From a virus (lineage: Duplodnaviria > Heunggongvirae > Uroviricota > Caudoviricetes), in the IMG/VR virus record IMGVR_UViG_2681813004_000012, positions 1 to 7,978 of that record: a stretch of DNA of 7,978 bases; one strand, written 5' to 3'. Made by a program: the position numbers. Below, piece by piece: positions 6,001 through 7,978 of the stretch. The stretch's first letter is position 1, and each line of letters begins with the position of its first letter.

Positions 6001-7978
6001 GCTGATTCAGGGAGGCCAGCGCCTTCACCGGATCTGCTGCAATCCCTTCAAAGGCTTTTTCCACCTTCCCGGCATCGTCCCCCACCGTCTGCAGCCATCT
6101 CTGAGAGGTTTCCCCCATGATCCGTAGCTGCCCGGCGGTATATTTCCCGCTTTCTGCCAGACGGGCCAGATTTTCTGCCGCCTGTCTGATACCACCACCG
6201 GCTTCATCGCTGATCACCCCGGCCATTTTCCACAATTCTGCCGTTGTGGTGGCAGCCGCCCCTCCGGTCAGGATCAGTGAACGCAATAAGGCCCGGTCAG
6301 CCTGCTCTGCCTGCCAGGCGGCGGCAGCAAGCGCGGCCAGTACGGCAACCCCGCCACCTGCCGCCACACGGGCCACCGACATAAATCGTCCCAGCGCACC
6401 GGCATTCCGGGCATTTTCAGCCAGTGCATTTGCCGTATCTGACAGCGACTCCTCTGATGATTCAGAGGCATCCCTGATCCCGAGAAGTTCCTCCTTCAGC
6501 AGGGTAAGCAGGCTGAGCGGTCCACCGAATGAATCGCTGATCTGCCCCCCCTGCTGCAGCATGATAAGGAAGGGATTCTGACCACCGGCAAGCTGAGTGA
6601 CAATATCCGTGAACTGTGCGGGCAGTGTGCGCATGGCAGCCTTATACTGTCCGACTGATATCCCGGCTTTTTGTGCAGCCAGCGCCTGTCGGCTCAGCCC
6701 CTGTTCAACAGTACTGGCGGTTTTTCTGGCATCCGCCTCCAGACTGGAAAAATGACGGCGTACCCGGGCCATCTGTTCATCAAACCGGGCCGCATCCAGA
6801 CTCAAATCAATAACCAGATCACCCGCTGGCTGGGACATATCTCACACCTCCGGAAATCCCCGCTGAAGCCATCATTAATGCAACATCATCCTCGCTGACA
6901 TCCACCACATCCGCAGAAGGTGAAATATCGCGCCCTCCGTCCCCTCCGAACCGGACGCCTCCGGCAACTCCTGTCGCTTTCTGCATCAGCATTTCTTCCT
7001 CGTCCGGCATCTCCGTCTGCTCTTCCTCACACGCTGGAGCAAGCAGACTGAAATCCGCCGGATGCATATCCGGATCGCCAAAAAACAGGCTGAGTACGGC
7101 GTACATCAGCCCGGAAAAATGAGCGTCCAGTTGGGTATCCTGAAAATAATGCGTGCAGTAAAAACGTCGCCAGTCGGCATATTCGGTGGATGTCATCCCG
7201 GCAAGCATGGCGCGCCAGTCGGGTCTCCCCATCTCTCGCGCCAGTTTCAGGACAAAGTTCAGCTCGCCTTCGAATGCTTTTTTGATGTTACCGGCTCAGT
7301 CGCTTCTGCTTTCCCGGTTTGTTCAGGATCGGCATCGTGCCGGTTATCCAGCATACCTGAAAGATAAAGCACCCGGTTCGTTGCCTGATTCAGTGCATCA
7401 GCAGGCCATCCCAGCATCACTTCACGGCGGATCTGCTGCATCTCTGTCTCCGGAGAGGCCAGAGTGCCTTTGAGGGAATGGGAATGCCATAGCGACATCG
7501 CCACAAGCAGGGATGCCGTTTCCAGATATCGCTGGTTAATGTGCACGACATCATGCTTCGTTGTCTCCTGTTGTTCTGCGTCTGAAACAAACTTTATATA
7601 ATCAAACCGCTGCAGCGCAGACAATTCGGAAAGCGTGACGGACACACCGTTATATTCAAATTGTTCTGTTTTCAGAAACATGTATTACCTCCGTTTACCC
7701 TGCAGCGCCCGCTTCAGTAACGGTGACTTCAGCCACTGCGGCGAACTGACCATTTCCGCTCACCACAGGGATCTGCACCTTACCTGTCGCCACGCCGTTT
7801 ACCGTAATTGTCATATCTTTCACACTAATGGTGGCTTTCGACGGATCGGCGGAAACCGCTCTGAACGTCTTGTCGGTTGCACTTTCCGGCTCAAAAGAAA
7901 CCGTCAGGGTGGTTGTTTTCCCTTTTGCCACCGTACCGGATGTCGGCGTCACCTTAATCGCAGTGACCGGCGTAATTT

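Follow-up and report, generated by a model that had tools for sequence, protein, structure and literature searches.

A AAA AAG at the position of the lambda G-T frameshift site in a lambda-like prophage tail module of Shiga-toxin E. coli

We analyzed a window of 7,978 nucleotides (positions 1 to 7,978 of the IMG/VR record IMGVR_UViG_2681813004_000012, Caudoviricetes) that carries a lambda-like prophage tail module of Shiga-toxin E. coli. The heptamer A AAA AAG close to the 3' end of gene G is very probably the site of the programmed -1 ribosomal frameshift that joins G to T. We base this reading on the anatomy of the site, its register, its homology and positional equivalence to the lambda site, and its conservation among relatives, all of which are observed directly. 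The heptamer is one of three natural alleles, and we regard the site as an ordinary, common variant of a well-known mechanism.

The programmed -1 frameshift between lambda G and G-T was reportedly described by Levin, Hendrix and Casjens in 1993 and by Xu, Hendrix and Duda in 2004, 2013 and 2014. Tail chaperones are known to differ in their slip sites, A AAA AAG being the classic slippery heptamer of E. coli. Lambda requires a G:GT ratio of ~30:1, which is critical for tail assembly (PMC5009743); about 96% of reading stays in the zero frame (PMC3296357), and the lambda shift rate is 3-4%.

Results

A single in-register heptamer lies in the stretch that joins G to T

Pfam matches and open reading frames (ORFs) place the tail genes of the window in the order of lambda, namely V (present as its Big_2 C-terminus), G (PF06894), T (PF06223, in the -1 frame) and H (Table 1). 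Two short ORFs, G and T, thus lie between the major tail gene V and the tape-measure gene H, which begins at 6838 and adjoins the end of the T frame. Further ORFs of the window were assigned by Pfam to L, K and I, which are other lambda tail genes. In the PGAP annotation, the product of G is named 'phage tail assembly chaperone G'.

Table 1. Features of the G-T region and its neighbours in the window.
Feature	Position	Strand	Basis
Major tail gene V, 3' end with Ig-like Big_2 C-terminal domain, cut by the window edge	7695..7978	-	PF02368, E=1.4e-19; major tail protein V in the VT1-Sakai annotation
Gene G, tail assembly chaperone, 140 aa + TGA	7259..7681	-	PF06894 Phage_TAC_2, E=6.5e-35, residues 1-123
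Out-of-register GGGAAAG (GGG AAA G), read as an incidental Gly-Lys codon pair	7309..7315	-	Frame; variation; chance rate
Sole stretch where a -1 shift joins G to T	7262..7295	-	Bounds: -1-frame TGA 7298..7296 and G stop
Slippery heptamer A AAA AAG, proposed -1 site	7277..7283	-	Register; lambda alignment; clade conservation; second G lineage (L090)
T segment, -1 frame from the slip site, 152 codons + TGA	6819..7277	-	PF06223 Phage_tail_T, E=1.2e-11
Candidate 3' stem, tentative	7200..7268	-	GGCGAGC (7268..7262) + GCUUGCC (7206..7200), minimum-free-energy fold
Tape-measure gene H, disrupted	4278..6838	-	TMP_2, E=3.4e-48; 52-nt deletion by alignment

Both a script and direct reading of the sequence place AAAAAAG on the minus strand at 7283..7277. 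Its first A occupies codon position 3 of the G ORF (7681..7259), whose 140-aa product has the C-terminal end ...EPVTSKKHSKAS*, and the register is therefore A AAA AAG. Five codons, CAT TCG AAG GCG AGC, follow in the G frame before TGA. According to the script, this is the only in-register XXXYYYZ heptamer in the G ORF. When reading is resumed in the -1 frame from G7277, the sequence encodes AFEGELNFVLKLAREMGRPDW... and runs for 152 sense codons to TGA at 6821..6819, which predicts a G-T fusion of 287 aa made of G codons 1-135 and the 152 T-frame codons. In the frame translations, no stop interrupts the -1 frame between 7295 and 6822. Only within 7295..7262 could a -1 shift from G reach T productively, and no slippery motif other than the heptamer was found in this stretch. 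These results agree with the initial annotation, which had placed A AAA AAG five codons before the G stop and had the -1 frame continuing into a T-like sequence; the latter is borne out by the length of the open frame, the PF06223 match and the homology to lambda T.

The mere presence of a slippery heptamer carries no evidence here, because AAAAAAG and GGGAAAG each occur once on both strands of the whole window and shuffled sequences hold on average 1.36 and 1.31 copies, respectively. What gives AAAAAAG its weight is that it is in register, at the homologous position and conserved.

The upstream GGGAAAG is read as an incidental codon pair

A heptamer of the lambda type, GGGAAAG, is found upstream at 7315..7309. 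It begins at codon position 1, so that the G frame reads GGG AAA G, and the -1 frame from there meets TGA at 7298..7296; it is thereby ruled out as a -1 site, and a stop at 7289..7287 rules it out as a -2 or +1 site. The frame script confirmed the position, the frame and the TGA as first annotated, and the distance of 26 nt given at that time corresponds to 7309 minus 7283, with 25 intervening bases. The same place reads GGGAAAA in VT1-Sakai and several viral contigs and GGTAAAG in others, while AAAAAAG is constant in all of them. Because the upstream GGGAAAG is out of register, lies outside 7295..7262, varies in close relatives and occurs at chance frequency, we read it as a chance Gly-Lys codon pair and not as a functional decoy. 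The earlier description as an 'out-of-register decoy' is thus right about the register and overstated in the word decoy, given the GGGAAAA and GGTAAAG of the relatives.

The heptamer occupies the position of the lambda slip site

We aligned the G-T regions of the window, VT1-Sakai, E2865 and lambda. TCA AAA AAG aligns column for column with GCG GGA AAG of lambda, as had been proposed, and in both phages the heptamer stands 15 nt before the G stop. The V-G-T-H order and the Pfam families of G and T are common to both, and so is the A-site codon AAG, read by tRNA-Lys(UUU). The difference lies in the P-site codon, which is AAA (Lys) in the window and GGA (Gly) in lambda. At the protein level, window and lambda share 43-45% identity in G and 68% in T (80% over the first 75 aa), and the C-terminus of T is longer in the window, the T frame having 152 codons compared to 144 in lambda. 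Nucleotide identity to lambda is 32-57% in the G body, 75% across the heptamer and, for most of the 200 nt of T that follow, 85-92%; the heptamer lies where a variable 3' end of G meets a conserved 5' end of T.

Predicted mechanism and frameshifting rate

The predicted course of translation is as follows. The majority of ribosomes would read through ...TCA AAA AAG CAT TCG AAG GCG AGC TGA and release the 140-aa G. With AAA in the P site and AAG in the A site, a few percent of ribosomes would slip backward by one base. Both codons would be decoded by the single E. coli tRNA-Lys (anticodon mnm5s2UUU), and the two tRNAs would re-pair on AAA AAA before decoding continues with GCA TTC GAA GGC..., which encodes the T-frame sequence given above. 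The product would be the 287-aa G-T fusion, whose T domain is homologous to lambda T, the link between the tape measure and the major tail protein.

That ribosomes would shift here, and at what rate, is expected from lambda genetics and from published reporter values for the bare heptamer. Sharma et al. 2014 (PMC4066793, Table S3) used E. coli -1 reporters with no stimulator, with IS911 stimulators or with the IS3 pseudoknot. In these three settings, frameshifting was 0.29%, 4.3% and 39% on AAAAAAG and 0.28%, 3.8% and 43% on GGGAAAG (PMC4066793). Because the two heptamers perform equally in the reporters, A AAA AAG is expected to be the functional equivalent of lambda G GGA AAG at the same position, and the swap should be nearly neutral, with an unchanged G:GT ratio. 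A rate of a few percent would need some contribution from the context, because the bare heptamer yields ~0.3% in a neutral reporter. In E. coli genes, in-frame A_AAA_AAG is strongly avoided (z=-10.1; PMC4066793). The lambda G:GT ratio is modulated by the host tRNA-thiolation pathway and depends on s2U34 of tRNA-Lys(UUU) (PMC3296357). On A AAA AAG, both slipping tRNAs would be this tRNA-Lys.

Three heptamer types occur in the lambda-G family

We surveyed ~210 related loci, 52 from one-genome-per-species contigs and 160 from viral contigs, the latter searched with two query alignments; related proteins were collected as well. At each locus we determined where G stops, which heptamers are in register and how far the -1 frame extends. 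Some matches in Neobacillus, Kitasatospora and others came from low-coverage contigs and had exactly the lambda sequence; they look like contaminating lambda DNA and were left out of the diversity.

At the homologous position, 0, 3 or 15 nt before the G stop, the surveyed loci carry GGGAAAG, AAAAAAG or GGAAAAG, and A AAG is the sole invariant part of the heptamer. G GGA AAG is found in lambda, many E. coli prophages and Edwardsiella types, and G GAA AAG is dominant in Enterobacter, Citrobacter, Kluyvera, Kosakonia, Proteus, Xenorhabdus and others. A AAA AAG is carried by all 37 sequences of the G clade of the window (the window itself and 36 fetched loci), where it is invariant while its neighbours vary. 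It is also carried by a second G lineage, locus L090, which encodes a 138-aa G that is 49% identical to that of the window. At three loci (L187, L201 and L207), the -1 frame does not open until 13 nt ahead of the G stop, leaving the heptamer as the one possible place for the shift. The C-terminal motif of G is GK in 90 and KK in 19 of 114 full-length G proteins. The initial annotation spoke of a slippery site that was exchanged while the frameshift architecture was conserved; the conserved architecture stands, and with three heptamer types in the lambda-G family the variation is better called allelic than an exchange.

The DNA of this region is 99.8-99.9% identical to ten Stx1a-converting phages and 100% identical to prophages in many O26, O111 and O103 genomes. 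A G-T query of 901 nt is matched over at least 80% of its length in 644 of 5426 complete E. coli genomes (~12%).

Several comparisons bear on the origin of the A AAA AAG variant. L090 and the window share 87% identity in the 39-nt G tail but less than 50% in the G body, and one protein (P0010) joins a lambda-like N-terminal part to a C-terminal part of the window type. PhiR12_2_star has a T close to the allele of the window, including the same long C-terminus, next to a different G allele with G GGA AAG. The heptamer therefore goes with the variable 3' tail of G, and both AAAAAAG and GGGAAAG types adjoin near-identical T alleles. Because the heptamer moves with the G tail and can adjoin the same T allele, mosaic recombination would account for where it occurs no less well than three point mutations would; G GAA AAG could be an intermediate, one step away from G GGA AAG.

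A candidate 3' stem

No Shine-Dalgarno-like element was found 6-17 nt upstream of the heptamer, where the bases ACTGAGCCGGTA contain no GGAG, GAGG or AGGA. Downstream, the minimum-free-energy fold contains the candidate stem of Table 1, a 7-bp outer stem that begins 8 nt downstream of the heptamer, with a GGCGCG/CGCGCC hairpin inside it (7242..7237 with 7214..7209). The minimum-free-energy stability of the 3' region of the window is not significant (z=-1.66). RNAalifold gave a weak consensus for 19 diverse sites (-7 kcal/mol, covariation term -0.48); in the same set, the outer helix shows 88% pairing and 4 compensatory pairs, which is above shuffled and slid controls. At columns 16:84, G:C versus A:U is perfectly associated, and tree mapping places the co-changes in about three clades. 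The outer helix is degraded in Proteus and Edwardsiella types, and its arms, 60 nt apart and both coding, could be co-inherited.

We tentatively treat the stem as a lead on a frameshift stimulator rather than as a finding. Its interest comes from the distance between ~0.3% for bare heptamers and 3-4% in lambda, for which the literature holds no stimulator; the current view is that G-T shifting in tailed phages needs none (PMC5009743). A broader model can be formulated, which we consider rather unlikely. It proposes that the lambda-G family conserves only the A-site A AAG, whose fixed position coincides with the recombination boundary separating the variable G tail from the conserved T head, that the P-site codon (GGA, AAA or GAA) is freely exchangeable, and that the few-percent rate is set by the long-range 3' stem ~8 nt downstream (7268..7262 with 7206..7200). 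If true, a rate-setting stem would contradict the no-stimulator view (PMC5009743). Under the same model, variants with AAA or GAA in the P site, in which both slipping tRNAs have s2U34, could exceed lambda in sensitivity to tRNA thiolation.

Discussion

A programmed ribosomal shift at A AAA AAG has to be weighed against other ways of expressing T. If T were an independent gene with its own start at ATG 7232..7230, as the separate 'tail assembly protein T' of PGAP and GenBank records and the ORF 7232..6819 in the ORF listing would have it, no frameshift would be needed. However, conservation in the T frame starts 15 codons upstream of this ATG, directly 3' of the heptamer (AFEGELNFVLKLARE in the window, VFDGELSFALKLARE in lambda), and the REMGRP of the window corresponds to REF(G/R/N)RP in most relatives, where an internal T start is impossible because Phe replaces Met. 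The ATG also has no properly spaced Shine-Dalgarno sequence, GAGAG standing directly against it, and lambda T is said, from the 1993 work of Levin et al., to be made solely as the G-T fusion. Taken together, we find an independent T highly improbable. RNA polymerase slippage on the A6 run appears just as implausible. It would add an A to the mRNA and have the effect of a -1 shift with no ribosomal slippage, and the A6 homopolymer is indeed present in the variant of the window and absent from that of lambda; slippage is known to occur on A-runs (Antonov et al. 2013, PMC3711429), and the run is mutable in DNA, an A having been lost in one protein cluster (P0003, 31 member sequences). Programmed transcriptional realignment is, however, reported for runs of >7 A's (PMC3711429), which makes six a short run. 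Sites of the same architecture at the homologous position have A3 (GGGAAAG) or A4 (GGAAAAG), runs that cannot support polymerase slippage, and AAAAAAG and GGGAAAG are identical in ribosomal frameshift reporters (PMC4066793).

A different question is whether the site serves any present function in the window copy. We see an even balance between a working site and a relic, that is, a heptamer merely inherited in a decaying tail module; a relic would be compatible with the frameshift mechanism whenever the region is translated. The sign of decay in the window is an out-of-frame deletion of 52 nt in H. The H ORF (6838..4940, 632 aa) ends after this deletion, the remainder is open in another frame (4844..4278), and beyond about 4949 the sequence switches to an 83%-identical allele; the 52 nt are present in all best-matching complete E. 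coli genomes. Because H is broken in this way, the site may no longer serve tail assembly in the window copy. Other copies also show decay, with a frameshifted H in E2865, a truncated T in EC-107 and indels in some G variants (P0003, P0008 and P0011). On the other hand, the window keeps G, the heptamer and T intact, its G-T region matches that of Stx1a-converting phages with an intact 870-aa H at 99.9% identity, and ASU11, which has the G-T allele of the window, was recovered by mitomycin C induction. Since intact phages carry the same G-T sequence, a relic in the window would leave the proposed ribosomal frameshift mechanism unchanged.

The main practical value of the A AAA AAG site lies in an annotation gap, in an allele carried by ~12% of complete E. 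coli genomes. In VT1-Sakai, ASU11 and the PGAP genomes E2865 and EC-107, which carry the allele, and in the related PhiR12_2_star with its different G allele, G and T are given as separate genes with no slippage join and with T starting at the internal ATG 7232. Because the records checked list T in this way, the predicted 287-aa G-T fusion is missing from databases. The biological value is modest, and a specialist would expect such variation of slip sites. The natural series G GGA AAG, A AAA AAG and G GAA AAG could nevertheless be used to probe the weight of the P-site codon and stimulation by the context.

Within the lambda-G family, the G GAA AAG class shares family, position, A AAG core and T frame with the site of the window. 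It differs in having GAA in the P site, where re-pairing on GGA needs a G:U pair at the middle position, and it is not a strict X XXY YYZ heptamer. The cluster table of Sharma et al. 2014 contains A_AAA_AAG_25 (ECs1801) and G_GGA_AAG_4 (gpG) and no A_AAA_AAG cluster of the lambda-G type. Likewise, the supplements of Antonov et al. 2013 list a single phage cassette, of the unrelated ECs1801 family, and none of the lambda-G type.

Outside this family, the closest parallels are dnaX and ECs1801. The heptamer of dnaX, A AAA AAG, is identical, as is the tRNA-Lys that occupies its P and A sites, and to this extent the first description of the site as 'dnaX-type' is accurate. It does not extend to the cassette. 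In dnaX, a Shine-Dalgarno-like stimulator ~10 nt upstream and a close 3' hairpin 5-6 nt downstream accompany a shift of ~50%, and the shifted product is the shorter one, whereas the window has no Shine-Dalgarno-like element 6-17 nt upstream, a tentative 3' structure and a longer shifted product (-1 frame of 152 codons). ECs1801, an HK97-like tail chaperone of E. coli O157 prophages, is encoded between the major tail and tape-measure genes and also has an A AAA AAG slip site. Its protein is unrelated to G of the window (BLASTP E=1.2), and its heptamer stands directly against the TAG stop, compared to five codons before the stop in the window. ECs1801 is listed under cluster A_AAA_AAG_25, marked 'true' (Sharma et al. 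2014, PMC4066793), and for a Phage_TAC cassette of this type with A AAA AAG, Antonov et al. 2013 (PMC3711429) measured 6-7% frameshifting in E. coli.

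Proposed shift sites and downstream sequence in the lambda G family

At most sites of the lambda G family outside E. coli (loci L020-L052 and L137-L216; e.g., L024:1501-1929 and L047:1501-1890) the sequence is G GAA AAG, a motif that departs from the canonical X XXY YYZ heptamer; tRNA-Glu re-pairing on GGA at this sequence would require a G:U pair at the middle position. Since the -1 frame of locus L187 is open from only 13 nt 5' of the G stop, G GAA AAG must, judging by the reading frames, be the shift site there.

On the 3' side of the proposed slip site of the window (A AAA AAG), a candidate stem begins after 8 nt, and the end of its 5' arm coincides exactly with the G stop codon. 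Across 19 diverse sites, this stem was 88% paired, with compensatory G:C to A:U changes. A long-range stem may be conserved at this position, with coding constraints and linkage confounding the evidence.

Among relatives of the window's G protein (7259..7681), proteins P0003, P0008 and P0011 are decayed copies of the window's G allele. In P0003 (31 member sequences) the A6 run is one A shorter (...EPVTSKSIRRR...). P0008 and P0011 have indels upstream; their reading follows the third frame, where the upstream GGGAAAG, termed an out-of-register decoy in the initial annotation, turns in-register as CC G GGA AAG (...PGKQKRLSR*).

Annotation and provenance of G-T loci

In all five records inspected (E2865, EC-107, VT1-Sakai and loci L218 and L219), G and T are separate CDSs, T having an internal-ATG start, and a ribosomal-slippage join is absent, so that the G-T fusion is missing from their annotations. 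In addition, T is flagged as partial in EC-107 and H as frameshifted in E2865.

Lambda-identical G-T sequences were found on short, low-coverage genome contigs (L005-L017, L040 and L044) from unrelated bacteria, among them Neobacillus, Kitasatospora, Paenibacillus and Shewanella; these most likely reflect assembly contamination by lambda DNA.

Tape-measure gene and L-K insert of the window

Compared with the intact alleles of the Stx1a phage Stx1_9793 and of EC-107, the window's H lacks 52 nt between ...GGTCACCGG and GGCCGGTCTGAAG..., a deletion that shifts the frame so that the reading ends at a stop (4942..4940) after 632 aa, the remaining part being open in a different frame (4844..4278). 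These 52 nt are kept in 8/8 of the best-matching complete E. coli genomes listed. Past about 4949, the window has just 83% identity to the Stx1a phage.

Coordinates of features in the window
Feature	Position	Strand	Remarks
Tape-measure gene H	4278..6838	minus	lesion at about 4945..4950
Candidate conserved long-range stem	7200..7268	minus	alignment A3 columns 15-22 and 78-85
1.6-kb insert	1667..3237		between the tail genes L (3952..3254) and K (1651..875)
Antirepressor in insert	2581..1667		Bro-N plus P22_AR_C
Small Arc-like protein in insert	2814..2653		
Divergent Arc/Mnt-like protein in insert	2917..3237	plus	

In strain EC-107, K comes directly after L. The layout of the window's L-K insert is similar to that of the P22 immI module.
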